Assembly (NCBI GenBank): GCA_964368915.1
Contig: CAYJDH010000001.1
Span: 1 to 32,058, forward strand
Source: an uncultured Candidatus Saccharibacteria bacterium
GTDB taxonomy: Bacteria > Patescibacteriota > Minisyncoccia > Phycocordibacterales > UBA5272
DNA: 32,058 nt
Direction: 5' to 3'
Shown here: piece after piece, positions 1 through 32,058 of the stretch
How the letters are laid out: each line of letters starts with the position of its first letter
Numbering within the stretch: position 1 is the first letter of the stretch
Program-made: the position numbers and the translations under genes
The notes under the pieces: model-generated
What the model was told of the DNA's origin: nothing
Database searches by the model: none
The model's input: the letters and a program-made list of their open reading frames with translations, nothing else

Positions 1-105
1 CAGGCACAAGCTGATAAAATGCTAACCAACATGGCAGATCACAAACAAGGTGAACGTAAAGGTAAAAACATGAAGATTGGTCACTTCAAAAAACATAATC
101 AATAA
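1..105 (+). CDS. 3' end of an unidentified CDS entering from the left edge (ends ...KIGHFKKHNQ*)
   Basis: Frame 1 is open from base 1 to TAA at 103-105 (35 codons, too short for the ORF track). A hairpin terminator follows at 155-171. No motif recognised. Confidence 0.3.
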   Translation, partial: QAQADKMLTNMADHKQGERKGKNMKIGHFKKHNQ

Positions 106-154
106 AAATCACAACAACAAATACAATACAATAAAAAAGGCAGAAATAAAAAAA

Positions 155-171
155 GGCCCGCTTCGCGGGCC
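155..171. terminator. Rho-independent terminator hairpin, GGCCCGC-TTC-GCGGGCC
   Basis: Perfect 7-bp GC stem. On the minus strand it is followed by a T7 run (A-run 148-154 on plus), 38 nt downstream of the stop of CDS 209-1423. A second small hairpin, CTGGTC-ATG-GACCAG, lies at 181-195. Confidence 0.7.
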
Positions 172-208
172 TTTGCTGTACTGGTCATGGACCAGACATA
201 TAGGGTTG

Positions 209-1423
209 TTACTTTTTCAGCACCTTGCCGGTTTTGGGATCCCGGCAGACAGTGGTCTTTGTTGTCACCGTTTCGCAATGCGGCTTCTTCGCTTCTTTCC
301 CTGCAATATAGGACAGGGACTTGCCGCGATACTTTCGCTGCATAGCCGGAGTAATGATGAGACGTTGCTCCACTACTGCTGGCTGTGCCACAACTGGTGA
401 TGGCACTGGCGACGAGACGACGACAGCTGGGGCCGGTGGTGTTGGTGGGGTTGGCTTCTCAACGAAAAGAGGACAGTCTTCGGTGTCGTAGTGAGTAATC
501 ACATATTGTGATGCTCCACTACTACCGAATGATGCTCCGGCTGATGAGCCTGCCACACTGTTGCCGCCAGCACCGAGCTGATTACTCGACCCGAAGGTCA
601 CAGTGACCTTTGTCGTTGTAACAGCGTGACCCCAGTAGCTTTCTTTGCCACCAGGACCCTTAATTGTGCGATATTCTTTCGGATCTTCTTTCTTGATCTG
701 CGTGTACGTATAGTCACGCTTCCAAGGGATTAATCCGAACAGAATTGACACCTCTGCTGCCACCGGGCGGTCCTCTACCAGGACGCGAGGTCCGCATCCT
801 TTCGGGGAAATCACCGTCATCGTCGCGCCGACGATCGGAGCTGCGCCGTTTGGTACAGAGTAAGACGCAAATACATACGACTTACTGTTGTCAGTAACAT
901 TGCTCACTGACCGATCACTCGCATCAATGCTCGCGTTCACACCTGAAGTGCTTGGTCCGGAGGTTGCAGTGGATGGTCCCGTCGTAACGTTTCCAATCGC
1001 TGCTGCACCGCCTTGACCGACACCACCCTGTCCACCGCCGCCACCAGTTGCCGTTGATGTTGAGGCACCAGTGGTTGCTGTGTTGGGCCCAACATTAACT
1101 CCCACATTCGCTGCAGCGGCTGCATTGGCTGCTGCTTGCGCTGCGGCCTGAGCGGCTGCCGACGAGTTACTCGTACTACTTGAGCTACTCGACGGAGGAG
1201 CCGGAGGTGTTGGAGGAGGAGGAGGCGGGGGTGGAGGCGGCGGAGGATTGACACAATATCGCGTCACGGGGTCGTAAACCTTCCCCGCAGGACACACGTT
1301 ACAGGCCGGATAGCTTGAGTTGAGTGCCCCGTTATTGCAGTAAGTAGCAAACGCCGGTCGTGCGAAAATCAAAAAGAATAACGCAACAATCGGAATCAGT
1401 AACCTGAGAATCTTTCGATTCAT
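209..1423 (-). CDS. GC-rich cassette 1: secreted low-complexity protein (Pro12 run, Ala/Gln, Gly and Ser/Thr tracts) with an N-terminal Cys motif and a globular central part
   Basis: 404-aa ORF with ATG at 1423 and GGGAGA 7 nt upstream. Signal peptide MNRKILRLLIPIVALFFLIFARPAFA. G/C-ending codons, 63% GC at 1021-1080. Family not recognised. Confidence 0.75.
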   Translation of the reverse strand: MNRKILRLLIPIVALFFLIFARPAFATYCNNGALNSSYPACNVCPAGKVYDPVTRYCVNPPPPPPPPPPPPTPPAPPSSSSSSTSNSSAAAQAAAQAAANAAAAANVGVNVGPNTATTGASTSTATGGGGGQGGVGQGGAAAIGNVTTGPSTATSGPSTSGVNASIDASDRSVSNVTDNSKSYVFASYSVPNGAAPIVGATMTVISPKGCGPRVLVEDRPVAAEVSILFGLIPWKRDYTYTQIKKEDPKEYRTIKGPGGKESYWGHAVTTTKVTVTFGSSNQLGAGGNSVAGSSAGASFGSSGASQYVITHYDTEDCPLFVEKPTPPTPPAPAVVVSSPVPSPVVAQPAVVEQRLIITPAMQRKYRGKSLSYIAGKEAKKPHCETVTTKTTVCRDPKTGKVLKK

Positions 1424-1511
1424 AAATGTTTCTCCCGAAAAAAGTTAATATCAATGATCAATGACATCGGAACAAAGGGTCTTTTCAAACTCTTTGCACC
1501 AATAGGAACAA

Positions 1512-1540
1512 ACACTACTTTAATAGTGCTTGTTTGTCAA
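1512..1540 (-). promoter_or_regulatory. Putative sigma70-type promoter of cassette 1
   Basis: Minus strand reads TTGACA (1540-1535), 17 bp, TAGTGT (1517-1512). It has the same TTGACAA start as the other cassette promoters, but the -10 is weaker. Confidence 0.45.
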
Positions 1541-2376: not shown

Positions 2377-2727
2377 TTACGGTAAAGAAAACTCCTTTTT
2401 AATGGCATCTCCAACCAAAGAATACATAACATCTATACCGTTCTCATTAAACCTTGGGAATATCTCTCTCAGTAACGGCGATGGTATAGCTATGATATCT
2501 TGAGGTAATTTCAAAGTAAAAACTCTCACGTTGCCATCTTTTCTTTCTACCTCGAGAACAATTTTGTCAGGTTTAGATGTTTTATAATACTTACCAATAA
2601 TTGATTTTATTTCTGGTGACGCATGGAAACTTTCTGGCATCCCCTTCACGGCAACGAGTTTGCTTTCTTCTTTTCCACCAGCCTCTATTTTAGAGTTTAA
2701 TCTTGGACTCTGTTCCATATACCTCAT
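2377..2727 (-). CDS. Hypothetical protein (116 aa; true start may be the ATG at 2718)
   Basis: Backbone-like AT-rich ORF with no recognisable motifs. A -10 hexamer abuts the first ATG, so the fourth codon (MEQSPR...) is a plausible leaderless start. Confidence 0.5.
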   Translation of the reverse strand: MRYMEQSPRLNSKIEAGGKEESKLVAVKGMPESFHASPEIKSIIGKYYKTSKPDKIVLEVERKDGNVRVFTLKLPQDIIAIPSPLLREIFPRFNENGIDVMYSLVGDAIKKEFSLP

Positions 2728-2735
2728 AGTATACT
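2728..2735. promoter_or_regulatory. Palindromic AGTATACT giving overlapping TATACT -10 boxes for two divergent genes
   Basis: Plus-strand TATACT (2730-2735) lies 6 nt before ATG 2742. Minus-strand TATACT (2733-2728) lies directly before ATG 2727 and 9 nt before ATG 2718. The whole intergenic gap is 14 bp. Confidence 0.4.
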
Positions 2736-2741
2736 ATATTC

Positions 2742-3513: not shown

Positions 3514-3954
3514 TTAAATTAAACAGCTTTGCACGTAATCAAGCGCCTTCTCTTTCGTTGCAATAGAAATAATTTCTGATTTATATCCAAAATATTTTAA
3601 TATTAAATCTTTTTCTTGCGCTTCGATTTCCGTGAAATTTTCTATACCGACAGAATTATCGACAACAATTACTTTATGATCCCCATCTTTTCTTTTGAGC
3701 ATCCCTATCACACTAACCTCGACGACATCCCCTGTATTGTAAATCTCTGACGATAAGATTATCGCATCCACATTATCCTTCTCCTCGCTATTGATTGTAT
3801 CGTTTATATATCCGTAACAAACAGGCATTACCCCTCCGTTCACAGGGATCTGGTCTTTAATTGGACCTAGATCTACAAAACCGGAGTTATCATAAGACAT
3901 GTGGATACGTCTATCTGACCCTTTTGGTATTTCAACTGTTACGCAATATTTCAA
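3514..3954 (-). CDS. ppa: Inorganic pyrophosphatase-like protein (family I fold, divergent and short)
   Basis: VTVEIPKGS...MPVCYGYINDT...EKDNVDAIIL...KDGDHKVIVV aligns by eye with E. coli Ppa (IEIPAN..YPCNYGYINHT..DGDPVDVLV..EDAKLVAV). The track start at 4002 lies inside the tRNA, so I place the start at TTG 3954, 1 nt after the tRNA 3' end. An ATG at 3900 would remove the EIPKGS motif. Confidence 0.55.
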   Translation of the reverse strand: MKYCVTVEIPKGSDRRIHMSYDNSGFVDLGPIKDQIPVNGGVMPVCYGYINDTINSEEKDNVDAIILSSEIYNTGDVVEVSVIGMLKRKDGDHKVIVVDNSVGIENFTEIEAQEKDLILKYFGYKSEIISIATKEKALDYVQSCLI

Positions 3955-3955
3955 G

Positions 3956-4027
3956 TGCTCTCGGTAGGAATCGAACCTACATCGTGGGTACCGCAAACCC
4001 ATATTCTATCCATTGAACTACGAGAGC
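3956..4027 (-). tRNA. tRNA-Arg (anticodon GCG), no encoded CCA
   Basis: Reverse-complement cloverleaf. Acceptor GCTCTCG/CGAGAGC, anticodon stem TGGGT/ACCCA, loop TTGCGGT, T arm GTAGG-TTCGATT-CCTAC. Length 72 nt. Confidence 0.8.
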
Positions 4028-4074: not shown

Positions 4075-4338
4075 TTACTTTGAAACCTTTGCGATTGCTT
4101 TTGCTAGACGAGACTTTTTACGGTCTGCAGTCCCCTTTTTGATTGTTCCTCTCTTTGCTGCTTTGTCTAACGCTTTAAAAGCTGCAGAAAGGTTGTCTTT
4201 CGCACTCGAGTCGCTCTTTGCAACCTTTGCACGCACTGTTTTAACAGCCTCCTTCATAGTTTTCGACAAACGGTCATTGATAACCTTTTTGCGATCGCTA
4301 ACGCGGAGAGCCTTTTTTGCTGATTTGGTAATTGCCAT
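4075..4338 (-). CDS. rpsT: 30S ribosomal protein S20
   Basis: MAITKSAKKALRVSDRKKVINDR...KGTADRKKSRLAKAI matches the S20 pattern. The start was moved from the track's 4359 to the ATG at 4338. Confidence 0.9.
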   Translation of the reverse strand: MAITKSAKKALRVSDRKKVINDRLSKTMKEAVKTVRAKVAKSDSSAKDNLSAAFKALDKAAKRGTIKKGTADRKKSRLAKAIAKVSK

Positions 4339-4364
4339 ATGAGAGGCATAATACCACACTTTTA

Positions 4365-4373
4365 TGTTATAAT
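4365..4373 (+). promoter_or_regulatory. Extended -10 promoter (TGTTATAAT) of leaderless ruvA
   Basis: TG at 4365-4366 and TATAAT at 4368-4373. The ATG at 4380 lies 6 nt downstream and there is no Shine-Dalgarno. Confidence 0.6.
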
Positions 4374-4379
4374 CAAAGG

Positions 4380-4949
4380 ATGATAGGATATCTCGCGGGA
4401 CAAATCAAACTCATAGAAAGCGACAAGATAATCTTGGAAAATCAAAACGTTGGGTACGAGATACTGCTCCCCCTCTCTAGCCTGATAACACTCAAAACGT
4501 CTCAAAGTCTGGAGCTATACATACATACACATGTTCGCGAGGATCAGTTCACTCTGTTTGGATTTTTCGAAGAAAAAGAGAGGCAGCTTTTTAGAAAGTT
4601 AATCAGTGTGTCTGGTGTTGGCCCAAAGTCAGCTCTTAATATATTGTCTGTTGCTACGCCCAGCACCATAGTGCGCGCAGTTGGCTCTGGCAATGCTGAC
4701 ATGTTTCCAAAAGTTCCTGGCGTTGGTAGAAAAACTATTGAGAAGATAATAATAGAACTAAAGAACTCATTCTCAGTTGATGAGATGGCAAGTGATGAGA
4801 GTGAGAATTCGCATGATGCACGCCTAGCCCTCGAGACACTCGGATACTCTTCGAAAGACATAGCAACTGTGATAGGAAAAATAGACAAGACATTGTCTAT
4901 GAATGACATCATACGCCAAGCTCTTCAAATTTTATCAAAGACAAAGTAA
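4380..4949 (+). CDS. ruvA: Holliday junction branch migration complex subunit RuvA
   Basis: Canonical MIGYLAGQI N-terminus. HhH motifs LISVSGVGPKSALNIL and VPGVGRKTIEKII. Small C-terminal domain III. Confidence 0.9.
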   Translation: MIGYLAGQIKLIESDKIILENQNVGYEILLPLSSLITLKTSQSLELYIHTHVREDQFTLFGFFEEKERQLFRKLISVSGVGPKSALNILSVATPSTIVRAVGSGNADMFPKVPGVGRKTIEKIIIELKNSFSVDEMASDESENSHDARLALETLGYSSKDIATVIGKIDKTLSMNDIIRQALQILSKTK

Positions 4950-4958
4950 AATAGAATC

Positions 4959-6191
4959 ATGAACTCACACATTGAAAAAGCTTTACGCAAAATAGAAAAA
5001 CTCGTCCCTAGAAAAGTCTATAAGTTTTTCCAACCGGCATATCACTTTGTCCTAGCTTTGGTCGGAGCAATCATATACAGATACCCAGCAAGAGATATAC
5101 ATGTAATAGCGGTGACAGGAACAAAAGGTAAATCAACCACGACAGAGTTTGTGAATGCGATATTAGAAGAAGCTGGGTACAAGACCGCAATACTGTCTAC
5201 TATTCGTTTTAAAATAGCTGACCACAACAAGCCAAATATGTACAAGATGACAATGCCTGGGAGATTTTTCGTGCAAAAGTTCCTCCGTGAATCTGTAGAT
5301 GCTGGTTGCCAATATGCAATAGTTGAGATGACTAGTGAGGGAGCTAAAATGTGGCGTCACGCATTCACATCACTCAACACTCTGATATTTACAAATCTAA
5401 CACCAGAACATATCGAGTCTCATGGGTCATTTGAAAAGTATCGTGATGCGAAGCTAGGTCTGGCTCGTGCTGTAGCTCGCAGCTGGAAACAAAATACAAA
5501 AGTCATAGCCAACGCCGACGACAAACATGGACCACACTTTTTAATATATAACGTAGACCAAAATATACCCTATTTTGAAAAAGACGCCAAGAAAATTAAA
5601 ATCAATATACCTGGAGAATTCAACAAAGTTAACGCTTTGGCTGCGGCAACTTTTGCGCGCAGTATAGGTGTATCAGAAGACAACATAACAAATGCCTTGG
5701 CACATCTGACACATATACCAGGACGCGTAGAGGAGATAAATGCTGGTCAGGATTTTAAAGTCGTTGTTGACTATGCACACACCGCAGACAGCCTAGAAAA
5801 ATTATACAAGACATACAAAGGCAGCAAAATAGCCGTTATCGGGTCATGTGGTGGTGGTAGAGACAAGGCCAAGCGCCCGATACTAGGCGCATTGGCTGAC
5901 AAATATTGCGACACGGTGATAGTTACCGACGAGGACCCTTATGATGATGATGTTGATGAGATAATTAACGACGTGGCGAGCGGGGTCACAACTCAAGATC
6001 CAATAATAGAAGCAGATCGCAGATCAGCAATCAGGCTCGCAATATCAAAAGCAAAAACTGGTGACACTGTACTGATAACAGGCAAAGGTACTGATCCATA
6101 TATCATGCGTGCCAATGGTGAGAGAGAAATTTGGAGTGACTCGAGGGTGGCGAGAGAGGAAATAGAAAAGTTTTTAGCAACAACGGTATAA
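4959..6191 (+). CDS. murE: Mur ligase family protein, MurE-like (UDP-MurNAc-tripeptide synthetase) with a short N-terminus
   Basis: VTGTKGKSTT P-loop, FTNLTPEHIESHG, VDYAHTADSLEKL, GGGRDKAKRP, TDEDPYDDD and GKGTDPY follow MurE motif order. TAAAAT (4947-4952) lies 6 nt before the ATG. Confidence 0.65.
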   Translation: MNSHIEKALRKIEKLVPRKVYKFFQPAYHFVLALVGAIIYRYPARDIHVIAVTGTKGKSTTTEFVNAILEEAGYKTAILSTIRFKIADHNKPNMYKMTMPGRFFVQKFLRESVDAGCQYAIVEMTSEGAKMWRHAFTSLNTLIFTNLTPEHIESHGSFEKYRDAKLGLARAVARSWKQNTKVIANADDKHGPHFLIYNVDQNIPYFEKDAKKIKINIPGEFNKVNALAAATFARSIGVSEDNITNALAHLTHIPGRVEEINAGQDFKVVVDYAHTADSLEKLYKTYKGSKIAVIGSCGGGRDKAKRPILGALADKYCDTVIVTDEDPYDDDVDEIINDVASGVTTQDPIIEADRRSAIRLAISKAKTGDTVLITGKGTDPYIMRANGEREIWSDSRVAREEIEKFLATTV

Positions 6192-6201
6192 TCTTTTTAA
6201 T

Positions 6202-7134
6202 ATGCCTGAGTTACCAGAGGTAGAGTCGTTGCGTACCGGATTAGAAAAAGTTTTAAAGTCTAGAACGATAAAAAACATAGAGATAAGAAATGGAAAACTA
6301 GTGAGTGGGTCAGGCACAAAGAGGTCTATAAATAAAAAGAAAAATATTGAGTTTGTGGACAATTTAAAAGACAAGAAAATATTGTCAGTGAAAAGACGTG
6401 CTAAAAATATTTTTATTGAGCTCGACACAAAAGAAATAATATTGGTACATCTAAAAATGACAGGGCAATTGGTGTACGAGCCTCCTACGCTAAAGCTTCG
6501 AAGCCCAGAAAATACAGTAAGAAATAATATAGTGACGGGTGGACACCCAATAGAGGAGTCGTATAGGCAGACCCTCCCCCACAAACATACACATATAATA
6601 TTCACACTCGACAGTGGGACTCTTTATTATAATGACGTGCGCAAATTTGGCTATGTTTTGTATTATAAAAGTATAGACGCAGCAGTAGATGCAAAACATT
6701 TTTCAAAAATAGGACTAGAGCCTTTTGATCCAGCTTTTACATTTACATATTTTAGAGATGAAATAAAAAAGAAAAATAAAGCATTAAAAACAGTGCTCCT
6801 TGAGCAATCGGTAGTTGTAGGTTGCGGCAACATATATGCAGATGAGGTGTGCTTTGCCTCAAAAGTTTTGCCTGGCAGGAATTGTAAGACACTCACCGAT
6901 GCAGAAGCAAAACTAATACACAAAAATATTATCAAAATCTTGCAGCGCGCTATAGATCTTGGTGGCTCATCTATATCTGACTATCTGCTCGCCGATGGCA
7001 GCCGTGGCAACTTTGCTCGCGAGCACAAGGTATATGGCAGAGCTGGAGAAAAATGTGTAGTCTGTAAAAACATCTTAGAAAAGTCCACCATCGCCGGCCG
7101 CACCACAGTCTTCTGCCCTATTTGCCAGAAATAA
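6202..7134 (+). CDS. mutM: Formamidopyrimidine-DNA glycosylase (Fpg/MutM), with insertions relative to typical ~270-aa enzymes
   Basis: MPELPEVE N-terminus, H2TH region, C-terminal zinc finger CVVC...CPICQ. Confidence 0.9.
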   Translation: MPELPEVESLRTGLEKVLKSRTIKNIEIRNGKLVSGSGTKRSINKKKNIEFVDNLKDKKILSVKRRAKNIFIELDTKEIILVHLKMTGQLVYEPPTLKLRSPENTVRNNIVTGGHPIEESYRQTLPHKHTHIIFTLDSGTLYYNDVRKFGYVLYYKSIDAAVDAKHFSKIGLEPFDPAFTFTYFRDEIKKKNKALKTVLLEQSVVVGCGNIYADEVCFASKVLPGRNCKTLTDAEAKLIHKNIIKILQRAIDLGGSSISDYLLADGSRGNFAREHKVYGRAGEKCVVCKNILEKSTIAGRTTVFCPICQK

Positions 7135-7139: not shown

Positions 7140-7158
7140 GCCCCGAACAAGTCGGGGC
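7140..7158. terminator. Bidirectional terminator shared by mutM (+) and cassette 2 (-)
   Basis: GCCCCGA-ACAAG-TCGGGGC, with an A-run (7133-7138) upstream and T5 (7159-7163) downstream. Confidence 0.75.
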
Positions 7159-7179: not shown

Positions 7180-7698
7180 TTAGGTCAGTCGGATGATAGG
7201 TCGCTCATGATGAGCGAGCATGCGGGTTGCTTGTGTCGCCTTGTTTTGCGCCATTTCGATCAGCTCGACGTATCCTTCACGGATACGATCGAGTTTCGTC
7301 ATGGGCACAGCCGCAGTGACCAAGGTCTCGGCATTGCTGCAATCAGGATCGGATGTCACCAGGGCGACTGCGGGCATCACTGTGTAGTCGGTGCCGACAG
7401 TCTCTGGCTCAACGTTGACGACAGCAGCGGTCCACACGTCTTTCGGCGAGAGGAACAAGTTGAAGTCGGGCACCTCTTGCGAGTTCTTGCCTTCAATCTT
7501 CACAGCCTTCGGATTGTCGGTCGTGTTAACGACTGACAGAAGGGTATTGGTACCGGCGCGAACCGTGTAGTACGGATAGACCAGCGCTTGACCAAGGCCA
7601 TCACCGTTGATGTAAACGGCGTTGGCGGCACCTGCCATAGCGAGGGCGCCAGCACCCGCCAGAGCGGATAACAGGGCCTTTTGCTTGAACGTATTCAT
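7180..7698 (-). CDS. GC-rich cassette 2: secreted protein of unknown function (172 aa precursor)
   Basis: Start placed at ATG 7698 (MNTFKQKALLSALAGAGALAMAGAANA signal peptide), with GAGGAG 12 nt upstream. The track's TTG at 7752 adds a non-signal extension. 60% GC at 7321-7380. Confidence 0.7.
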   Translation of the reverse strand: MNTFKQKALLSALAGAGALAMAGAANAVYINGDGLGQALVYPYYTVRAGTNTLLSVVNTTDNPKAVKIEGKNSQEVPDFNLFLSPKDVWTAAVVNVEPETVGTDYTVMPAVALVTSDPDCSNAETLVTAAVPMTKLDRIREGYVELIEMAQNKATQATRMLAHHERPIIRLT

Positions 7699-7818
7699 AG
7701 TTAGATTTGACTCCTCTGCATTGAGTTTTTGAGTGAACACTTGTAGAATCAACGGCTCTTTGAGGCCGGGGAACGGAATGTTTCTGACGGGGTCTCCTCC
7801 AGAACATTTCTAATTAAA

Positions 7819-7846
7819 ATTCTACTCTTTATATAGCATTTGTCAA
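7819..7846 (-). promoter_or_regulatory. Sigma70-type promoter of cassette 2
   Basis: TTGACA (7846-7841), 16 bp, TAGAAT (7824-7819). The first 12 nt, TTGACAAATGCT, are identical to the cassette 3 promoter. Predicted leader is about 110 nt. Confidence 0.6.
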
Positions 7847-7893: not shown

Positions 7894-7966
7894 GTCCCTA
7901 TAGCTCAGTCGGTAGAGCAACTGCCTTTTAAGCAGATGGTCGCTGGTTCGAATCCAGCTGGGGACA
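7894..7966 (+). tRNA. tRNA-Lys (anticodon UUU), no encoded CCA
   Basis: Acceptor GTCCCTA/TGGGGAC, D arm GCTC..GAGC, anticodon loop CTTTTAA, T arm GCTGG-TTCGAAT-CCAGC. Length 73 nt. Confidence 0.9.
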
Positions 7967-7982
7967 CACAAACGTAAAGAAA

Positions 7983-8047: not shown

Positions 8048-9235
8048 TTAGTCTTGCTCTATTTCGCAGGCAGTGATTGATCCATCAGCGTTTTTTACGC
8101 CTTCGTATTCAACCTTCATACCAACTTTTAAAGCTGTAACATTTTTCTTTAGATCTATTTCTGTCTCATCTGTTACTCTGATGAGAATATTTTTAACAGT
8201 TATGGCTGTTGACGTGACGGCTGTTATTTTGCCCTCACCCTCAACATTCTGTGTTTGTGTTTGATTCCCACCTTGACCTCTGTGACGTCCATTGTGATTT
8301 TGGTCATTGTCTCTATGACCATACCCGTTCCACCAACCATAATGGTTTCCATTGTTACCATGACCTTGATGATAGTCATCATCGTCATCATTACCACACA
8401 CAGATGGAGGTGTTACAACATCGGCTGGATCAATTGTGATTGATATCGTACCAGTTCCGAGAGTGCCAGCAGAATCCCTAGCTGACAAAGCTATATTGTA
8501 CGTTCCTGTGGCTGTCGGTGTACCAGACAGGATACCTGTAGAAGATATCACCATGCCAGCCGGTACCCCTGTCGCAGTGACAGAATGTGGAGCTATACCT
8601 GTAGCCATAAGGCTAATAGATGTATAAGCAACACCAACTTTTCCGTTTAACAAAGAGGCTATGAATGTCACAGCAGGAGGAGCAACATCAACAACAATGT
8701 TAGTAGCGTGAACAACACCTAGAGCATCAACTGTTCCGGTGTATGTTATAAATTTTCCCGCAAGAGTAAAATATGTTGTTCCATTCAGAAAATCAATAAC
8801 CGTATCGTCTGAGATAGAAATATTAACATTTGTAGGGACTAGACCACCGTTAACGACAATAGAGTTGAACCCTGTACCCGTAACGATACCAGCACCAGAT
8901 ACCACAGGCTCCGGGTCTACTGTTATAGAGATATCTCCAGACACAGAAGCATTAGTAGAGTCTGTAGCAGACACGTTTAATGTATATGTGCCAACAGTTG
9001 TAGGTGTGCCAGATATGAATCCATCAGCTGACACAGTCATACCAGCTGGGACGCCAGCAACTGTAACAACATATGGAGAGACACCCGAGGTGACTAGATT
9101 GGTTATTGGATAGGCTCTGTTAACCATAGCATTTGCTAATGTAGGAGTGATAGACACCGCCATTGCAAATTGTGAAAACAGTGCGAGAGAAAGGCCAGCA
9201 AAAATACTGGTTCTCTTCAAAGATTTTAAAGACAT
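8048..9235 (-). CDS. Secreted surface protein with two putative Ig-like (He_PIG/cadherin-like) repeats, a His/Asn/Gly/Asp-rich linker and a small C-terminal beta domain
   Basis: Signal peptide MSLKSLKRTSIFAGLSLALFSQFAMA. Two copies of the motif G(V)PAGM.(V/I)S..G.(I/L)SGTPT..GTY.(L/I)..SA.DS. Linker DDDDDYHQGHGNNGNHYGWWNGYGHRDNDQNHNGRHRGQGGNQ. Confidence 0.7.
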   Translation of the reverse strand: MSLKSLKRTSIFAGLSLALFSQFAMAVSITPTLANAMVNRAYPITNLVTSGVSPYVVTVAGVPAGMTVSADGFISGTPTTVGTYTLNVSATDSTNASVSGDISITVDPEPVVSGAGIVTGTGFNSIVVNGGLVPTNVNISISDDTVIDFLNGTTYFTLAGKFITYTGTVDALGVVHATNIVVDVAPPAVTFIASLLNGKVGVAYTSISLMATGIAPHSVTATGVPAGMVISSTGILSGTPTATGTYNIALSARDSAGTLGTGTISITIDPADVVTPPSVCGNDDDDDYHQGHGNNGNHYGWWNGYGHRDNDQNHNGRHRGQGGNQTQTQNVEGEGKITAVTSTAITVKNILIRVTDETEIDLKKNVTALKVGMKVEYEGVKNADGSITACEIEQD

Positions 9236-9432
9236 TAATTTTGGATTAGATTTTGCTTTGATAAGAAAATACGGAATTCAAAGCACCTTTACAAAAAGTG
9301 TAGCACCTATGTTTAAAATATACTAGAGGCTAATACTGGGGATAGTCGTAGCGTACTCGAACCCGGACTCACTTGGGGTTATAAAAGCCTTTGATTTATC
9401 ATCTCTTAATGGCCCACCACCTAAATACCAGA

Positions 9433-9441
9433 TTATCCACA
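9433..9441 (+). promoter_or_regulatory. Perfect DnaA-box 9-mer TTATCCACA (orphan, intergenic)
   Basis: Exact match to the E. coli-type consensus, read directly in the 242-bp spacer downstream of the holA-like gene. Confidence 0.3.
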
Positions 9442-9477
9442 GCACCCAAAATCCTACAAAAAAATAAAAGAGATATC

Positions 9478-10044
9478 TCATATTTTTAGTATAAGCTTCT
9501 CTAGGTCATCATACAAATCACCTTTCCCCTCATGTGCCTCGTGGCGCATATTAATAAGTTCAAACATCCCCTGTTTGTTTCTCATTGTTTTCATTTTCCA
9601 ATACAACACCCCTTGCAACTCTTCCGCCGGCATCAGACCTTTTATTCTTTGTAGCTCTATCCAGGCTCCACGTTTGTCTTTGTTTTGTATTAACGTAGCC
9701 AACACAAACGGATCCACTTTTTCCTTTTCTTCCTGACAATCAAAGACTTTTTCAGCAAAAGTTGAAAGCTTTTTCAATGTTGCCGGCAATATCTGTGTCT
9801 CGTCTATCAAAAACATATTTTCTGACTTTTGCATTTCTTTCAAATATCCGTACAGAGTCTCTCTTTCTTTTTCACCTTGCCACTCTTCGATGCGTATCAC
9901 CTCTCTATTCCCAAACATATCTACTTGTAAATATTGTTTTAGGCTTTCTATTTCACCAGCCCTCAGGACACGAGTTGTACCCGAGAATATTTTATCCCCC
10001 TTGATTCTCTCTTTTAAATTTGTCCCAACTCTTATATATATCAT
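9478..10044 (-). CDS. holA: Short DNA polymerase III delta subunit-like protein (HolA-like)
   Basis: 188 aa. The start ATG overlaps the polA stop (ATGA), implying translational coupling. The helical C-terminal part loosely resembles delta domain III. Weak assignment. Confidence 0.35.
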   Translation of the reverse strand: MIYIRVGTNLKERIKGDKIFSGTTRVLRAGEIESLKQYLQVDMFGNREVIRIEEWQGEKERETLYGYLKEMQKSENMFLIDETQILPATLKKLSTFAEKVFDCQEEKEKVDPFVLATLIQNKDKRGAWIELQRIKGLMPAEELQGVLYWKMKTMRNKQGMFELINMRHEAHEGKGDLYDDLEKLILKI

Positions 10045-12837: not shown

Positions 12838-12859
12838 CTATACATTTTAACACAAAACA

Positions 12860-20375: not shown

Positions 20376-20414
20376 GAAACTTAACTGCCAGCCATTATAA
20401 CACATTTAAACTTC

Positions 20415-23283: not shown

Positions 23284-23303
23284 AACAACACTATATCATA
23301 TCT

Positions 23304-25469
23304 ATGAACACCCATAAACACCACACAAAGAGAAACAGATTTGTCTCGCACCTAGTAAAAGAGTCTGTATATGCACTTTTTGGTTTGGCTCTTATCGCTT
23401 CGGCATTTTTTGTGGTCTGGATTGCCACCATCAAGTTGCCTGATTTTAGTGATTTTGAGAATAGAAAAATAGCAAACAGTACAAAAATATATGACCGCAC
23501 AGGAAAAGTGGTCTTGTACAACATACACGAAAATATAAAACGTAGTGTTGTGTCTTCTGACCAAATCAGCAACAATATAAAAGAGGCGGCTGTGGCAATA
23601 GAGGATTCACATTTTTATGAACATTATGGTATCAGACTCCAATCCATAATACGCGCGGTGTTAGCAAATATAGCCAGTGGTGAAAAGTCTCAAGGTGGGT
23701 CAACAATAACACAACAGGTTGTAAAAAACGCCTTATTAACAAGAGAAAAAAGCATACCTAGAAAAATAAAAGAGTGGGTATTGGCAATAAAGCTGGATGC
23801 TCAGCTGGACAAAGACACAATATTAACAATGTATCTGAATGAGTCACCGTATGGTGGGTCTATATATGGGGTTGAGGAGGCTTCTCAGTCGTATTTTGGT
23901 AAGCCAGCAAAAGATGTGACCTTGGTAGAGGCGGCATATCTCGCTGCCATGCCTCAGGCACCGTCATACTATTCGCCTTATGGAAAACATCTAGATGAGC
24001 TGGAGAAAAGAAAAAACTTAGTGCTTTCTCGTATGTTTGAACTAAACATGATAGACGACACCGAGTACGCCGAGGCAAAAAACACAAGAATAACATTCCA
24101 ACCACAAGAAAATAGTAATGGTAAAGCTTTTCATTTTGTATTTATGGTGCGTGAGTATTTGGAAAACAAATATGGCGAGGATGTTGTTGAGAATGGTGGT
24201 TTAAAAATAATTAGCACTCTCGACTGGAATTTACAAAAAAATGCAGAGGAGATAGTAAAACAGGGGGCGTTAGATAATGAGAAAAAATACAAAGCCGAGA
24301 ACGCAGCATTGGTTGCCATAGACACGAAAACAGGGCAAATACTCAGCCTCGTCGGATCTCGTGACTATTTCGACAAAGACATAGACGGACAATACAATAT
24401 TGCGACAGCTCTCCGCCAACCAGGATCATCATTTAAACCCATAGTCTATCTCTTGGCTTTTATGAAGGGGCTAACACCCGACACTGTTTTGTTCGACCTG
24501 CCAACACAGTTCAGCACCTATTGTGATGCATATGGTAATCCTCTGTCTGGAGGGGACAAAAAGAAATGTTATATGCCGGTCAATTATGACGGAGAATATC
24601 GTGGGCCAATATCTCTACGTTCAGCCCTGCAGCAGTCTCTCAATATTCCTGCGGTTAAAACTTTATATTTAGTCGGAGTACAGAATGCTATTAACTTTGC
24701 AAAGAGTCTGGGAATAACAACCTTGGGTGACAGTTCTCGTTTTGGTTTATCTTTGGTTCTTGGTGGTGGTGAGGTAACACTGCTCGAGCTAACAAATACA
24801 TACGCAGTCTTTGCAAACAATGGTGTTTATAATCCGCCAGCTATGATATTAGAAGTTAAGGATTTGGGTGGTAATGTTTTAGAAAAATACACACCTCAAG
24901 AAAAAGATGTGGTGCCAAAAGAATACACAGATATTTTGAGTGATGTCTTGACCGACAACAACGCTCGTATCCCTTCTTTTGGAGCGAACAGCGCGCTCTA
25001 CTTCTCGGACAGGCCTGTGGCGGCTAAAACAGGTACTACAAACGACTACAAGGACGTTTGGGTTGTTGGATACACTCCTGACCTAGCTGTGGGCATGTGG
25101 GCTGGTAATAACGATAATACGCCTATAGACAAAAAGGTTGCAGGTATGGTTGTTGCTCCTATTTGGAAAAAGTTTATGAGCGTCGCCCTTAATGAGACAC
25201 CTATATCGTATTTTGACAAACCTACACCAACACCTTCTGACGCCCTGCCTATCATTAGGGGTATGTGGTGTGGTACTGGACAACCAGTACATACAATACT
25301 TGGGGATATAGGATCAAATGGTTCTGTGCAGAGTTACAACGACTCACAGTATAATCTTTGGAATACCCCTATACAGACATGGGCACAGGGTAAGTCTTGT
25401 CCTTTTGGAGGAGACCTCGTTCCTGTTGTTGATACACCCACAACGACTGAGAATATTATAGGTTTTTAG
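23304..25469 (+). CDS. Class A penicillin-binding protein (PBP1A-type glycosyltransferase/transpeptidase)
   Basis: N-terminal TM. GT51 motifs EDSHFYEHYGI and GGSTITQQVVKN. Transpeptidase motifs SSFKP and KTGTT. Confidence 0.9.
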   Translation: MNTHKHHTKRNRFVSHLVKESVYALFGLALIASAFFVVWIATIKLPDFSDFENRKIANSTKIYDRTGKVVLYNIHENIKRSVVSSDQISNNIKEAAVAIEDSHFYEHYGIRLQSIIRAVLANIASGEKSQGGSTITQQVVKNALLTREKSIPRKIKEWVLAIKLDAQLDKDTILTMYLNESPYGGSIYGVEEASQSYFGKPAKDVTLVEAAYLAAMPQAPSYYSPYGKHLDELEKRKNLVLSRMFELNMIDDTEYAEAKNTRITFQPQENSNGKAFHFVFMVREYLENKYGEDVVENGGLKIISTLDWNLQKNAEEIVKQGALDNEKKYKAENAALVAIDTKTGQILSLVGSRDYFDKDIDGQYNIATALRQPGSSFKPIVYLLAFMKGLTPDTVLFDLPTQFSTYCDAYGNPLSGGDKKKCYMPVNYDGEYRGPISLRSALQQSLNIPAVKTLYLVGVQNAINFAKSLGITTLGDSSRFGLSLVLGGGEVTLLELTNTYAVFANNGVYNPPAMILEVKDLGGNVLEKYTPQEKDVVPKEYTDILSDVLTDNNARIPSFGANSALYFSDRPVAAKTGTTNDYKDVWVVGYTPDLAVGMWAGNNDNTPIDKKVAGMVVAPIWKKFMSVALNETPISYFDKPTPTPSDALPIIRGMWCGTGQPVHTILGDIGSNGSVQSYNDSQYNLWNTPIQTWAQGKSCPFGGDLVPVVDTPTTTENIIGF

Positions 25470-25677: not shown

Positions 25678-26780
25678 TATCTATTTATAGGCATTAAAAG
25701 ATATATAAAGGTGTTGTCTTCTTCGTTTTGAATAAATAAAGGTCTGTTTGTTGTTGTATATTTTAAGAGTATGTTTTCTGAATTTATTTTTGAAAGACCT
25801 TCTAGGAAATAATTACTGTTGTAGAAAACCTTTAAACTTTCGTTGTGTTCAGATTTTATAGGTATTTCTTTTGTCATTTGACCAACACCTTTTTCTTCTG
25901 AAGATATTAGTATTGTTTGGTTTTCTGGATTATATTCCATAGAACATATTGGTGTTTGGTTGTTAATAATAGAAGACAACTCTAAAGCGTTTTGTAAAAC
26001 CTCTTTTCTAACAGAAAAAGAAAACATAAACTCTTTTGGAAATAGTTGTTTATAGTCTGGGAATGATCCGTCTGTTAACCTTGTGGATATAAAGCTGTTT
26101 TTGGTTTCAAATATTATCTGGTCTCCGTTTTTAATTATATCTAGATTATTTTCTTTTTCTTGCTCTAGAATAGAAAGTATTTGTCCTATGTTTTTCTGAG
26201 GTATTAATATATTTAATTGATTATCTGTTTCAAAAAATACATGTTTTTCTGCCAGTCTGTACGAGTCTGTTGCAGCGCTGTATAGTTGTCCATCTTTTGT
26301 ATACAAATAAACACTGGCTATTTCTGGTTTTATCTCTGTTGTGGCTGCACAGAATGCTACATTTTTAACAACATCAACAAATACATCTTTTTGTATTGTT
26401 AATATTTTACTGCCACCATTTTGTATCTTGGGAAACATTGACTCGTTATAAAGATCCACATCAGTGTGGTTTTTGTTACTTTGTATACGTAAAACGTTGT
26501 CTATTTTTTCAAAAGTTATAACGTCAGAGCTTTTAGCTATATTTGAAAGTATTTTTGATAACAATGAGGCATTAACTAAACATGATCCGTTTATCTCACC
26601 TTTTATTGGTATATTTTGTTCTGCTATTATCTCTGTGTTTGCTGAGCGTAGTGTGAGATTATGGTTTTCATTTTCTATATACACACATTCAAATATAGGG
26701 TCTAGTCCTGTTTTTTGTGAGACTCTGGCGAGAGTTTGTATTTTTTCTTTTATTTCTGATGCCTGGCAGGTGAATTTCAT
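25677..26780 (-). CDS. dnaN: DNA polymerase III beta sliding clamp
   Basis: 367 aa with three-domain length, positioned directly downstream of dnaA. N-terminus MKF.C....L........V. Confidence 0.85.
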   Translation of the reverse strand: MKFTCQASEIKEKIQTLARVSQKTGLDPIFECVYIENENHNLTLRSANTEIIAEQNIPIKGEINGSCLVNASLLSKILSNIAKSSDVITFEKIDNVLRIQSNKNHTDVDLYNESMFPKIQNGGSKILTIQKDVFVDVVKNVAFCAATTEIKPEIASVYLYTKDGQLYSAATDSYRLAEKHVFFETDNQLNILIPQKNIGQILSILEQEKENNLDIIKNGDQIIFETKNSFISTRLTDGSFPDYKQLFPKEFMFSFSVRKEVLQNALELSSIINNQTPICSMEYNPENQTILISSEEKGVGQMTKEIPIKSEHNESLKVFYNSNYFLEGLSKINSENILLKYTTTNRPLFIQNEEDNTFIYLLMPINR

Positions 26781-26999
26781 ATCTCTATTATAGATGTTAA
26801 TTATTAAAAAAGAAAACTGTATTTAAATATATATCTGTGTTTTAGGTGTATAACTAAAAAACCTAACAATAAAAACGTTTTTTATATAGTTATTAAAAAT
26901 AAAACACTAAAAACCAAACCAAACAAAAGCTATACAAAAACACAAAATAGCAACTTGTAAAGTTCTTACTTTTTATGAACAGTTTATACACAGATTTTA
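26781..26999. other. Candidate replication origin (oriC) in the dnaA-dnaN spacer
   Basis: The 219-bp spacer is extremely AT-rich (11/60 GC at 26881-26940). It holds an inverted pair of near-consensus DnaA boxes, GGTGTATAA (26845-26853) and TTATACACA (26984-26992). Confidence 0.4.
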
Positions 27000-28380: not shown

Positions 28381-28409
28381 TTGTCAAAGGGTTAAAATTA
28401 TTATAGAAT
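28381..28409 (+). promoter_or_regulatory. Promoter of leaderless rpmH-rnpA-yidC
   Basis: TTGTCA (28381-28386), 17 bp, TAGAAT (28404-28409). ATG 28416 is 6 nt downstream. Confidence 0.55.
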
Positions 28410-28415
28410 AGCCTC

Positions 28416-28553
28416 ATGTCAGTTACATATCAACCAAAAAACAAAAAGAGATACACAACCCACGGATTCCTAGTTAGAATGGCCTCAGCAACAGGTAAAA
28501 AGATAATTGCAGGCAGAAGACAAAAAGGACGCAAGAAACTGTCAGCAGACTAA
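28416..28553 (+). CDS. rpmH: 50S ribosomal protein L34
   Basis: Not in the ORF track (45 aa): [45 protein letters not shown] matches the L34 pattern. Confidence 0.9.
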
Positions 28554-29466: not shown

Positions 29467-30549
29467 CTAGTGATCGTGGTCCCCTGTTGCCTCAACAAAC
29501 TGAGCCATGTTTACAACAAACAAATCAGAAGTATTTTTGTCTATCAAGTATGCGTCGCCACTGGTTGCATTGTAACCAGTCTTTAATGTGTCTATGTTTT
29601 GCGACAACAGGCCCACACCAACATACTCTGCATCTGTGAACGAGTAAGCAAAAGCTTGGTCAACAGAAGAGATCAACCCCTTTCTCCAGTTTGTAAAATT
29701 AAAATTTTCTAAACCAACCCCAAAACAAAAATTAAAATCTATATCATAAGTGAAACACTTTTCCTTTGAATAGCTTTGTTGAAATGGGAATATATTCTGT
29801 GTCGCCAAGTCCCCAACATAATAAAAATCCTTGTTTTTAAAAGAATAAACAAATAATTTCTCAGACATACCATTTGGTTTTTCTGTTATATAAATATAGT
29901 TCTCGTCTGATTTTAATATCACAACGTCGCGCAATGACAAACCTCCTAAAGATAAGGCCTTGCCAGCCTTGTTTTGTATCAAGGTAAACCCGTTAGCCGT
30001 AGCAGAAAGGTAAACATAGTCATTGCTGCTGCCAATAAAATCAAAATCAAAAGCGCTTTGGTCTATAAAGGTAAATCTAGAGTCACCCCACACATACAAA
30101 CCATCTTGGCATGATATCAAAGCTTTTTTACCGGTATGTGATATCTTTGCATCAAAACAACCACCAGAAACAGTGTCCACCACAGACGAAGACGTGTATG
30201 GATAGGCCGAAAGTCTGATCTCTCCAGTTTTCTTGTCTATAAACATAACACTGGCGTCGTCCAGTGTTGCTGCGCCAATAGTTTCACCATCCCAGACCTT
30301 GAAAACATTGCTGGCGGTAAGGTTAGCAGTGTTTGTTTCTGTGTCACTAGGTATCTCTTCGTCCGCCCCGCCGAAAATATTTGCAAAGCTAAAATCTGGG
30401 AAAATCGGATTGTTTTGTGTTGCGTTGTTTGTGTTATTTGCTACCGGAGCAGGACCTCTTGAAAGCAATACATAAACAAAAATAGACAACAAAACCACAG
30501 CCACTACACTTATTATAATTATTTTCTTTGTATTATTATTTTCTTGCAT
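29467..30549 (-). CDS. Membrane-anchored hypothetical protein with a large extracytoplasmic domain
   Basis: Start placed at ATG 30549 (MQENNNTKKIIIISVVAVVLLSIFVYVLL TM anchor) to avoid a 65-nt overlap with the upstream gene. The track gives 30618. Confidence 0.55.
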   Translation of the reverse strand: MQENNNTKKIIIISVVAVVLLSIFVYVLLSRGPAPVANNTNNATQNNPIFPDFSFANIFGGADEEIPSDTETNTANLTASNVFKVWDGETIGAATLDDASVMFIDKKTGEIRLSAYPYTSSSVVDTVSGGCFDAKISHTGKKALISCQDGLYVWGDSRFTFIDQSAFDFDFIGSSNDYVYLSATANGFTLIQNKAGKALSLGGLSLRDVVILKSDENYIYITEKPNGMSEKLFVYSFKNKDFYYVGDLATQNIFPFQQSYSKEKCFTYDIDFNFCFGVGLENFNFTNWRKGLISSVDQAFAYSFTDAEYVGVGLLSQNIDTLKTGYNATSGDAYLIDKNTSDLFVVNMAQFVEATGDHDH

Positions 30550-30553
30550 ATAT

Positions 30554-31378
30554 TTATCTTCCACTCGGCGACCAGTGCCAATATTCTTTTGTTGAGGCAT
30601 AGTCGTTTTTAAATCCATATGTTATGGCGTTTGCTTGTAACCACTTACATGTAGCCCCAGAACAGTCGTGTTGGGGTATGCCTCTAAAATCTACAGCCAG
30701 ACCTTTTTCATGATTAGAAGTTCCTGGTATGGCTGTTGGTGGTGTGCACTGCCCAGACGGTTTTTGATATATATCGTAATATGTGGTGCCGCAGTTTTGT
30801 TTGCGTAGAGAAACCTGCTCGTCAATGGATCTGGCTCCAGCACGAGGCCCTGTTCCTGCCAGAGTTATACCATCTTTTGCAGCGGCTGCTATCATGTTTG
30901 TCAGGTTGGTTTGTATGCTTTTGCAGACAGTGATGCCGGACACATTTACCAACCCCTCAGAACAAGTTACTATTGTTGGCGGAGTTCCTGTCGGGGGTGT
31001 CGTGGTTGATGTTCCTGTTGGTGTACCAGAAACAGTGTTTATGATGCCGAGTGTTAAATTGTTTTTTAATATATTTGGATTGATTGAGTTTAGTATTACC
31101 CACACACTAAAAACAAACACTAACCCAGTGATCACACGGACAATTATTTCTTTACCCTGTTTTTGTTTGTTGGCTATATCTGTAGTCAGATACACCATAC
31201 CGCCGTATATGAGGTAAAACACGGCTGTGATGGCTATTAGAATCAAAACAAAGCTGTATGTGCTATTTAGATAGTTAGATAGTCCGTCTGGCGATATTGT
31301 GACCTTGCTGTCACCAGCTTTACCAGTTATCGGCTCTAAAAGTATATAGTCTACGTATTTCTTTGCAGGCTCTTGCAT
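30554..31378 (-). CDS. Fusion of a two-TM pilin-like (TrbC/VirB2-like) N-terminal module with a C-terminal LAS/M15 (VanY-like) peptidoglycan peptidase
   Basis: Two hydrophobic helices (FVLILIAITAVFYLIYGGMVYL, ITGLVFVFSVWVILNSI), a Thr/Pro linker, and the M15 motifs SNHEKGLAVDF and EYWHW. Confidence 0.65.
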   Translation of the reverse strand: MQEPAKKYVDYILLEPITGKAGDSKVTISPDGLSNYLNSTYSFVLILIAITAVFYLIYGGMVYLTTDIANKQKQGKEIIVRVITGLVFVFSVWVILNSINPNILKNNLTLGIINTVSGTPTGTSTTTPPTGTPPTIVTCSEGLVNVSGITVCKSIQTNLTNMIAAAAKDGITLAGTGPRAGARSIDEQVSLRKQNCGTTYYDIYQKPSGQCTPPTAIPGTSNHEKGLAVDFRGIPQHDCSGATCKWLQANAITYGFKNDYASTKEYWHWSPSGR

Positions 31379-31402
31379 AGAAACAGTGTATCATGAAAAT
31401 TT

Positions 31403-32058
31403 TTAGAAACTGAGACGTATTCTACTGCTGGCTGTTTGGAATATTCTACTCATATGCTCTATTTTTGACGTTATCGTAACGTTGCCAGAGGTGCCCTCGG
31501 GTAATTTGAAAAATCTAACACTATTTGAGTTGTCTGTTTGGGAAACATCATTTATCTCCCATATATATTCTAAGTTTTTGTTTTTGGTATAGTCTGTAGA
31601 AAAGAAAAATGGTTCAGATATTATAGAAAAAGCTTTTGATGATATGTTTTTTTGTCCTACAATTGCTGTTCTCGAGACCGTGTCACCAAATTCGTCACCC
31701 AGAAACATAATTATCTCCGGGTCAAAAGTTCTTATTGTTGTATTTTCTGTTATCTCTTCACTGTTTTCAATGGGAGAAACAGATACAGACACCGGCACGC
31801 TGTCTCCGTACTCATCCAGCATGCGATATGTTAACGTGTCCCTACCAACACCAGATTGTTCCAGTATCGGCTCATCACGCACAGACCAGTTGTATACGAG
31901 CTCTGAAGGTTTTAGTCTTTTGCTACCAGAATATATCTCTGTGTATGCGTATATCTTGGCATAACCACCTTTTGCTACTTCTGCCTTGCCGCCATACCAG
32001 TAGGGCACATAGCTGTCAGCCGCCTCGGTTATCAAAATCAACCTTTTAGGGCTAATTG
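31403..32058 (-). CDS. Hypothetical protein, 5'-truncated by the window edge
   Basis: The frame stays open upstream of the track's TTG (32041) to the window end. No recognisable motifs. Confidence 0.5.
   Translation of the reverse strand, partial: ISPKRLILITEAADSYVPYWYGGKAEVAKGGYAKIYAYTEIYSGSKRLKPSELVYNWSVRDEPILEQSGVGRDTLTYRMLDEYGDSVPVSVSVSPIENSEEITENTTIRTFDPEIIMFLGDEFGDTVSRTAIVGQKNISSKAFSIISEPFFFSTDYTKNKNLEYIWEINDVSQTDNSNSVRFFKLPEGTSGNVTITSKIEHMSRIFQTASSRIRLSF

Follow-up and report, generated by a model that had tools for sequence, protein, structure and literature searches.

The stretch analyzed here is a window of 32,058 nucleotides from an uncultured Candidatus Saccharibacteria bacterium (GCA_964368915.1, contig CAYJDH010000001.1), and our subject is the signals that precede its genes: -10 boxes directly before the start codons of housekeeping genes, and Shine-Dalgarno (SD) sites before a small class of GC-rich genes. 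The backbone of the window has a GC content of about 40% and contains dnaA, dnaN, rpmH, rnpA, yidC, a class A penicillin-binding protein (PBP) gene, tyrS, ruvC, ruvB, pilB, polA, tsaE, mutM, a Mur ligase gene, ruvA, rpsT, an inorganic pyrophosphatase gene and three tRNA genes, which were the only Rfam matches over the entire window. It further carries two large adhesin genes (He_PIG/DUF5666 and CLIPPER/DUF11) and a T4SS_pilin (PF18895)-VanY fusion. This gene content, chiefly the fusion and the CLIPPER adhesins, suggests a small genome of the Candidate Phyla Radiation (CPR)/Patescibacteria type. Set into this backbone are six GC-rich genes for secreted or membrane proteins, here called cassettes 1 to 6. 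A preliminary description had proposed two sets of expression signals, one of leaderless backbone genes and one of SD-led cassettes of foreign origin. Our survey of the window showed that the two sets are real and that they track gene GC content and codon usage.

Related contigs were retrieved via the cassette proteins. Their backbone proteins are 96-99% identical to those of the window in three contigs from the Joint Genome Institute (L083, L084 and L085), 85-95%, mostly about 90%, in L089 and L090, and about 60-87% in L086-L088. A further relative, L095, is a metagenome-assembled genome from NCBI (GCA_964420875.1).

Start-codon signals of backbone genes and cassettes

A TANNNT hexamer lies exactly 6 nt before the ATG at 9 of the 29 annotated starts, compared with 26 of 1004 other ATGs in the window (2.6%) and 3 of 114 intergenic ATGs (binomial p=3e-8). 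The proposal that backbone genes have a -10 hexamer 6 nt before an SD-less ATG is thus borne out. The distances from hexamer to start form a single sharp peak, with nine genes at 6 nt and one to four at adjacent spacings, and a TGn extension of the -10 is present in 4 of 11 near-start hexamers (p=0.003). Most of these genes have a -10 only, without a good -35, but a promoter scan found -35 elements at 17 nt for rpmH (TTGTCA-17-TAGAAT) and rpsT (TTGATT-17-TATTAT with TG).

SD sites divide the genes in the opposite way. Every one of the six cassettes has a core of GGAG, GAGG or AGGA 5-12 nt before the start, whereas not one of 23 backbone genes does (Fisher p=2e-6), in agreement with the preliminary description. 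Mean SD duplex energies are -7.0 kcal/mol for cassettes and -0.2 kcal/mol for the backbone, calculated with a canonical anti-SD that may not be the organism's own. Diverged cassette orthologues and distant family members have retained the SD. The cassettes had also been credited with leaders of 40-110 nt; from the end of the -10 to the ATG, we measured 44 nt for cassette 5, 50 for cassette 6, 69 for cassette 3, about 90 for cassette 1, 110 for cassette 4 and 120 for cassette 2.

The genes with a 6-nt gap are distributed over the whole window. On the plus strand, they comprise the DUF1295 membrane-protein gene (TATACT, ATG at 2742; 2730-2744), ruvA (extended -10 TGTTATAAT, ATG at 4380; 4365-4382), whose RuvA_N Pfam match starts at residue 1, a murE-like gene (TAAAAT, ATG at 4959; 4947-4961), pilB (TATAAT, ATG at 18529; 18517-18531) and rpmH, with its -35 element included (ATG at 28416; 28381-28418). 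On the minus strand, they are tsaE (extended -10 TGTTAAAAT, ATG at 12837; 12835-12852), which directly follows the terminator of the CLIPPER gene, tyrS (extended -10 TGATATAGT, ATG at 23283; 23281-23298), dnaN (TATAAT, ATG at 26780; 26778-26792) and the T4SS-pilin/VanY gene (extended -10 TGATACACT, ATG at 31378; 31376-31393). The murE-like hexamer overlaps the ruvA stop codon and may be an internal promoter or a coincidence. Near-variants precede p116 (TATAGT, 5 nt, ATG at 2727; 2725-2738, minus strand), the PBP1A gene (TATATC, 6 nt, ATG at 23304; 23292-23306, plus strand), p168 (8 nt), dnaA (12 nt) and rpsT (gene at 4075-4338, minus strand). The last has an extended -10, TGGTATTAT, 9 nt before its ATG (4336-4356), identical in L095; with a predicted leader of about 2-3 nt, it would be near-leaderless. 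All seven -10 strings quoted in the preliminary description were found, with their ATGs, where it had placed them, and the leaderless-type starts of tsaE, dnaN, the pilin-VanY gene, p116, PBP1 and rpsT extend its list. One of its examples, mutM (TATAAT, 9 nt, ATG at 6202; 6187-6204, plus strand), is weak: the TATAAT is missing in relatives, where mutM abuts the murE stop. A TATAAC before ruvB was rejected as a -10, since it is the -10 of a minus-strand promoter read on the opposite strand.

Conservation was compared across relatives with about 80-99% backbone identity. For tsaE, pilB, tyrS, dnaN and PBP1A, the hexamer and the 6-nt gap (occasionally 7 nt) are kept while the letters of the spacer vary, as expected of a promoter whose start point matters. 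The tsaE arrangement is preserved in four relatives with different spacer letters, that of tyrS in L083, L086 and L089, and that of dnaN in L086 and L089; before pilB, L086 has TATAAT-GTAATT-ATG and L089 has TATAAT followed by 7 nt. Several starts, moreover, face each other at very short distance. The divergent ATGs of p116 and DUF1295 are 14 bp apart, and their -10 boxes overlap on opposite strands; those of tyrS and PBP1A are 20 bp and those of rpsT and ruvA 41 bp apart. Such distances leave no space for ordinary promoters plus leaders. Sigma-70 promoters usually start transcription at about the seventh base after the -10, and a 6-nt gap places the A of the ATG at exactly this base. From the position of these motifs we therefore strongly infer that the housekeeping genes are transcribed from the start codon itself, without a ribosome-binding site (RBS).

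The nine internal operon genes, which are included in the backbone count above, also lack an SD core. These genes overlap the one before them (17 nt for tsaE/polA, 4 for polA/p188, 17 for ruvB/ruvC and 16 for rnpA/yidC) or abut it (rpmH/rnpA, with a gap of 2 nt), which suggests coupled re-initiation. The pyrophosphatase gene has a layout of its own (3952-4027, minus strand): its sole possible start is a TTG at 3954-3952, 1 nt downstream of the base at 3956 that is the discriminator of tRNA-Arg(GCG). Maturation of this tRNA at its 3' end would free a near-leaderless pyrophosphatase mRNA, an arrangement that recalls mitochondrial tRNA punctuation.

The two adhesin genes are a third class, leadered yet SD-less, with consensus-like promoters. 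The CLIPPER/DUF11 gene (12929-15459, minus strand) has the promoter TTGACA-18-TAGTAT (15459-15430) and an AT-rich leader of about 30 nt, and the He_PIG/DUF5666 gene (8048-9330, minus strand) has a conserved AT-rich leader of about 75 nt; neither has an SD. Upstream of the latter, an open reading frame (ORF) for a 52-aa membrane peptide (MRYLFYFFVGFWVLWIIWYLGG...; 9323-9481, minus strand) starts in an ATGA overlap with the p188 stop and is conserved in L095 and L089. Its stop codon falls within the putative TAGTAT -10 of the He_PIG adhesin gene.

The cassettes have full promoters. Matches of at least 11/12 to TTGACA-16-TATAAT occur six times in the window, compared with 0.93 +/- 0.93 in simulated sequence; five stand upstream of cassettes 2-6 and one before an unannotated noncoding RNA (ncRNA). 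Cassette 1 has only a weaker promoter-like TTGACA-17-TAGTGT. The shared strings reported earlier are present, TTGACAAATGCT in cassettes 2 and 3 and AATAGTGTATACTGT in cassettes 3 and 5, and the promoters of cassettes 3 and 5 are near-identical beyond the consensus (CTTGACAAA-N7-AATAGTGTATACTGT) and conserved in all relatives. The idea of a promoter common to cassettes and backbone holds for the CLIPPER adhesin, which scores 10/12, but not for the leaderless-type genes with their mostly solitary -10. Nor does it mark the lineage. A metagenome scan with CTTGACAA-N12-RTGTATACT-N5-6-YAG returned more than 120 matches on contigs of 28-67% GC, none from this genus among the matches listed, so that the common promoter type is the general sigma-70 consensus. 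A near-identical promoter, CTTGACAAAATAATTCACTTGTGTATACT...GGCAGAT, recurs in unrelated contigs of about 40% GC (L098 at 6682 and 7977, L118, L114, L131, L165, L175 and L188), twice at a distance of 1295 bp in two contigs, and the sequence behind it often offers no convincing ORF. Another CPR-like lineage may have it as the conserved promoter of an RNA gene.

The sixth match belongs to the intergenic region between pilB and ruvB (20218-20421, minus strand) and is the sole perfect 12/12 sigma-70 promoter, with TTGACA at 20421-20416 and a TG-n-TATAAT ending at 20394. The following ~165 nt are almost invariant across relatives with only about 80% backbone protein identity, and the RNA folds as a long rod (consensus -45 kcal/mol) with a T-run end that overlaps the pilB stop. 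A search of Rfam gave no match to it even at E<=1. This stretch is likely an unannotated structured ncRNA, perhaps 6S-like or similar to signal recognition particle RNA.

Cassette architecture, origins and codon usage

Most cassette proteins have a signal peptide, as judged by eye from the sequence, and terminator-like hairpins follow cassettes 1, 2, 4 and 6. The cassettes do not resemble those of an integron, since every unit carries a promoter of its own and several end in a terminator-like hairpin; no integrase domain was found among the scanned ORFs, and attC sites were not searched specifically.

The clearest history is that of cassette 2 (7180-7846, minus strand; coding sequence 7180-7698). 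It encodes a truncated homologue of a surface protein and has a TTGACA-16-TAGAAT promoter (7846-7819), a leader of about 114 nt, the SD GAGGAG (7716-7711), a bidirectional terminator (7140-7158) and an adjacent tRNA-Lys gene (7894-7967). Its homologues number more than 269 at 45-59% identity and are about 280 aa at full length. Those with names are from Betaproteobacteria (Casimicrobiaceae, Usitatibacter), and a copy on a Comamonas plasmid is annotated as "cell surface protein". CPR copies, which are present also in L084, L089 and L095, align to donor residues 1-162 only; the AlphaFold model of the cassette 2 protein reached a predicted local distance difference test score (pLDDT) of 53. Two homologues on large contigs, L096 and L221, can be aligned with four CPR copies over about 65 nt of the 5' untranslated region (5'UTR), SD included, as the block GTTGRTTCTAAAGTGATCACT ... 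CAGAGGAGT ... ATGAATAC. The closest non-CPR homologues are betaproteobacterial, and the L096 contig has a GC content of 64%. Upstream the similarity ends, and the TTGACA...TAGAAT promoter, adjoining tRNA-Lys, is found only in the CPR copies. Judged from its homologues and this alignment, cassette 2 is directly shown to be a betaproteobacterial gene that arrived with 5'UTR and SD attached and that now stands behind a CPR-only promoter. No integrase, insertion sequence or att-like repeat was seen near cassette 2, without a detailed search. The 5'UTR of this family also holds a 10-bp palindrome, AGTGATCACT (window 7732-7741, minus strand), which is perfect in the betaproteobacterial homologues and in L095 and L084. 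The window copy shows a single mismatch. The palindrome may be an operator that came in with the transferred gene.

The foreign origin proposed for all six cassettes thus holds for cassette 2, on the strength of its donor homologues and the 5'UTR/SD alignment, but is not supported for cassettes 1 and 3-5. Cassette 1 (209-1540, minus strand) has the promoter-like TTGACA (1540-1535) and TAGTGT (1517-1512), a leader of about 90 nt, the SD GGGAGA (1436-1431), a coding sequence at 209-1423 and a terminator at 174-152. It encodes a signal-peptide protein of Pro/Ala/Gly low complexity. Its GC content is 0.56, 0.59 and 0.49 at codon positions 1, 2 and 3, and the excess at the first two is due to the Pro/Ala/Gly runs. 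A short Cys motif (14/22 residues) is common to cassette 1 and the CLIPPER adhesin, a backbone gene.

Cassettes 3-5, all on the minus strand, are flanked by pilB and the CLIPPER gene, and all relatives found have them at this position. Cassette 3 (15548-16643) has the promoter TTGACA-16-TATACT (16643-16616), a leader of 63 nt, the SD GGAG (16555-16552) and a coding sequence for a Cys-rich secreted protein (15548-16546). In cassette 4 (16916-17437), the promoter (17437-17410) is followed by an AT-rich leader of 104 nt, the SD GGAGA (17308-17304) and the gene for a small membrane protein (16916-17299). Cassette 5 (17598-18011) has its promoter at 18011-17984, a 38-nt leader, the SD AGGAGA (17952-17947) and a coding sequence (17598-17939) for a lipoprotein-like secreted protein that is hypervariable between relatives. 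The leaders of all three are AT-rich (GC 0.28-0.43), and GC-richness is confined to the coding sequence. The leader of cassette 4 begins at the predicted +1 with a conserved AT-rich hairpin, AGAGGUUUUGAGAAAUAAUCUUUAUUCAUAAGGGUAAUUUACAAAACUUUCU, followed by U6 (window 17355-17420, minus strand). This hairpin is kept in L086, with one compensatory pair, despite an unrelated coding sequence downstream, and could be an attenuator/terminator or a separate small RNA.

The cassette-3 family is tiny, with 7 word-index matches and 37 representatives in 1.84 billion proteins. Its distant members L217, L218 and L220 have AT-rich surroundings that are CPR-like, and one of them, as in the window, has a CLIPPER-like neighbour; no member was found outside such contexts among those examined. 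Each has a TTGACA-N16-18-TATAAT/TATACT promoter, a leader of 59-74 nt and an SD, and each exceeds its own neighbours in GC content (46% compared with 30-34%, 56% with 43%, and 48% with 37%). A cassette-4-like gene in L217 has the same architecture of promoter, leader and SD and likewise a GC content above its neighbours; leaders of the distant cassette-3 and cassette-4 homologues range overall from 60 to 115 nt. For cassettes 3-6 no foreign donor was found, cassettes 4 and 5 not having been searched separately. Pfam and NCBIfam gave only a weak DUF4381 match for the cassette proteins (cassette 4). The AlphaFold model of cassette 3 (pLDDT 48) is confident in the C-terminal 110 residues only, and Foldseek found nothing for it in the PDB at E<=0.001.

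Cassette proteins diverge far faster than the backbone: identity of the cassette 3 protein falls to 75, 62 and 38% where that of the backbone is 97, 80 and 92%, and the divergence of cassettes 3-5 is saturated. Given such divergence and their long residence, the codon bias of cassettes 3-5 is not a recent foreign imprint. Something maintains it, whether selection, repeated replacement or, if the locus recombines, biased gene conversion. The content of the pilB-CLIPPER island differs among close relatives (window 18012-18477; L086 11084-11767), with an extra 227-aa gene in L086, and one cassette-3 member, P0005, is a chimera of an unrelated N-terminal half and a window-like C-terminal half. The island is, by this comparison, a hotspot of recombination or replacement. 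Cassette 6 (18082-18477, minus strand; coding sequence 18082-18399) has the promoter TTGACA-16-TAGAAT (18477-18450), a GC-rich leader of 44 nt and the SD GAGG (18408-18405). It is an orphan, with 2 proteins in all in the protein search, and is missing from L086 and L089.

Codon usage separates the two gene classes as sharply as the SD. ATA accounts for 63% of Ile codons in the backbone and 5% in cassettes 2-6, and AGA for 45% and 0% of Arg codons. Cassettes 2-6 favour C-ending codons (ATC 71%, TAC 75%, TGC 71%), and their third-position GC content is 0.52-0.65, compared with 0.23-0.45 in the backbone.

Explanations of the two signal sets

The explanation that we favour, and to which we give a probability of about 0.72, combines a leaderless core, an SD-led secreted class, mixed cassette origins and a functional split. 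Housekeeping operons begin with a gene whose -10 box, in many cases TGn-extended and mostly lacking a good -35, would set the RNA polymerase start at the A of the ATG, and the resulting leaderless mRNAs would be translated without an SD. Downstream operon genes, SD-less and overlapping or abutting the previous stop, would be reached by coupled re-initiation. The two large adhesin genes have consensus-like promoters and AT-rich SD-less leaders, and the six GC-rich secreted or membrane genes are canonical units, with leaders of 40-115 nt and the SD 5-12 nt upstream of the start codon. Cassette 2 was acquired, and cassettes 3-5 are long-standing residents of the lineage; for cassettes 3 and 4, the SD-led layout and the C-ending codons (no AGA, almost no ATA) persist in distant relatives. 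On this view the two gene sets are stably divided by function: housekeeping genes would be expressed constitutively at a modest level, and genes for surface and secreted proteins would be strongly expressed or regulated. A foreign gene arriving with an SD could join the latter set, and the partition would not simply be the footprint of recent transfer.

Several points weigh against this explanation. The leaderless call is drawn from motif position, and the sample consists of 29-31 window genes and their orthologous loci in relatives that are not independent samples. The -10 motif precedes 9 of 16 first-in-operon and 2 of 9 internal genes, a difference that in so small a sample is not significant (Fisher p=0.21). 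Within backbone genes, SD-like motifs are depleted only weakly and inconsistently (GGAG z=-2.1, GAGG z=+1.2). Both rpsT and rpmH lack the codon pattern of the cassettes, which weakens a simple high-expression explanation of the GC excess. Tsurumaki et al (2022, PMC9297842) found an anti-SD motif in just 48% of Parcubacteria, and if this organism had none either, the SDs of the cassettes could not function; their conservation before cassettes 3-5 argues for an anti-SD that is probably still present.

The -10 boxes themselves bear on one rival account, which takes the TA-rich hexamers not as promoters but as a non-SD translation signal, as in the GeneMarkS-2 "group B" of Bacteroidetes, or as a by-product of selection for unstructured starts, on mRNAs that do have leaders. 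Internal backbone genes are SD-less too, which requires some form of SD-independent initiation on RNA that is leadered or polycistronic; an A/T-rich stretch precedes the ATG in most backbone genes, and the lack of a significant difference between first and internal genes would also fit. We nevertheless regard this account as very improbable. The hexamer matches the invariant T1, A2 and T6 of TATAAT with a sharp peak at a single spacing and an enriched TGn extension, rpmH and rpsT add -35 elements at 17 nt, 7 of the 9 internal genes and all but 2.6% of intergenic control ATGs lack the motif, and divergent ATGs 14-20 bp apart leave no space for separate promoters and leaders.

The other two rivals concern the cassettes. 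The preliminary description in its full form, in which all six were acquired horizontally, kept their foreign codons and SD and received a native promoter, applies to cassette 2, which adjoins a tRNA gene, and could extend to cassette 6, which is patchy among relatives and has a GC-rich leader; every cassette, moreover, avoids ATA, AGA, CTA and TTA, as do GC-rich proteobacteria. As an account of all six, it is distinctly improbable, given the compositional GC and backbone-type Cys motif of cassette 1, the presence of cassettes 3-5 in all relatives, their AT-rich leaders and the small cassette-3 family confined to AT-rich CPR-like contigs in the contexts examined. The GC excess also follows the background (46% where neighbours have 30-34%, 52-56% in a 40% genome), which is unexpected for unameliorated foreign DNA, and tblastn found no plasmid or phage homologues of cassettes 3 and 6. 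Alternatively, the excess could be made locally, at fast-evolving recombining loci, by GC-biased gene conversion or by codon or mRNA selection, with an SD needed on the more structured mRNA. This would accommodate the rapid divergence of cassette proteins, the chimeric P0005, the variable presence of cassettes among relatives, the promoters and leaders conserved while coding sequences were replaced, and the third-position GC excess in every relative of the cassette-3 family, with the strongest shift toward C-ending codons. It leaves cassette 2, whose origin is demonstrably foreign, unexplained, and biased gene conversion in bacteria is itself debated. We consider it rather unlikely.

Comparison with known systems and implications

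Restriction of the SD to a small class of genes recalls Bacteroidetes, whose SD-poor genomes retain an SD in a few special genes and whose mRNAs are leadered with A-rich upstream regions. Unlike there, first genes in the window appear to be leaderless, and it is secreted proteins that make up the SD class. Another parallel is the "group C" of GeneMarkS-2, common in Actinobacteria and Deinococcus-Thermus, in which a Pribnow box lies 6-8 nt from the leaderless starts of first genes and other genes use an RBS (PMC6028130). Here, too, a -10 lies about 6 nt before SD-less first genes, and an RBS-bearing second set is present in the same genome. Whereas the remaining genes of group C, internal operon genes included, are SD-led, none of the 23 backbone genes here has an SD, which appears only in the GC-rich secreted class, and the lineage is CPR-like and AT-rich. 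As in the Parcubacteria that lack an anti-SD, native genes of a CPR lineage skip SD-led initiation, but that report covers rRNA only and describes neither mRNA signals nor leaderless promoters (PMC9297842). In the literature that we searched, no paper linked leaderless genes with CPR. Cassette 2, a betaproteobacterial fragment with its own 5'UTR and SD behind a CPR-only promoter, resembles promoter capture; it is the only one of the six cassettes that fits. Genomes with mixed leaderless and SD-led genes were thus already known, and what is unusual here is that the SD is absent from native core genes, internal ones included, and confined to a GC-rich secreted class.

When gene starts are predicted or expression constructs designed for CPR/Patescibacteria, genes are usually taken to be SD-led. 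Should the core genes of this lineage be leaderless, start calls could be anchored on the -10 box, and genetic tools would need leaderless or SD-less designs. The combination of SD, consensus promoter and C-ending codons, found only in genes for secreted proteins, provides a signature for candidate host-interaction genes, and the betaproteobacterial source of cassette 2, 5'UTR included, is a clue to the host or neighbours of this organism. The split also opens a direct test of whether the anti-SD is still in use on the ribosome of an SD-poor CPR organism. A bolder reading, unlikely and offered tentatively, is that the anti-SD and SD are retained solely for a separately tuned, long-selected regime of secreted, fast-evolving host-interaction proteins with C-ending codons and neither ATA nor AGA. 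The secretome could then be switched as a block by a single control, for instance the availability of the anti-SD or of a subset of tRNAs. Genes captured from a betaproteobacterial host or neighbour, such as cassette 2, would plug straight into this regime, which would also point to a Casimicrobiaceae/Usitatibacter-like Burkholderiales host.

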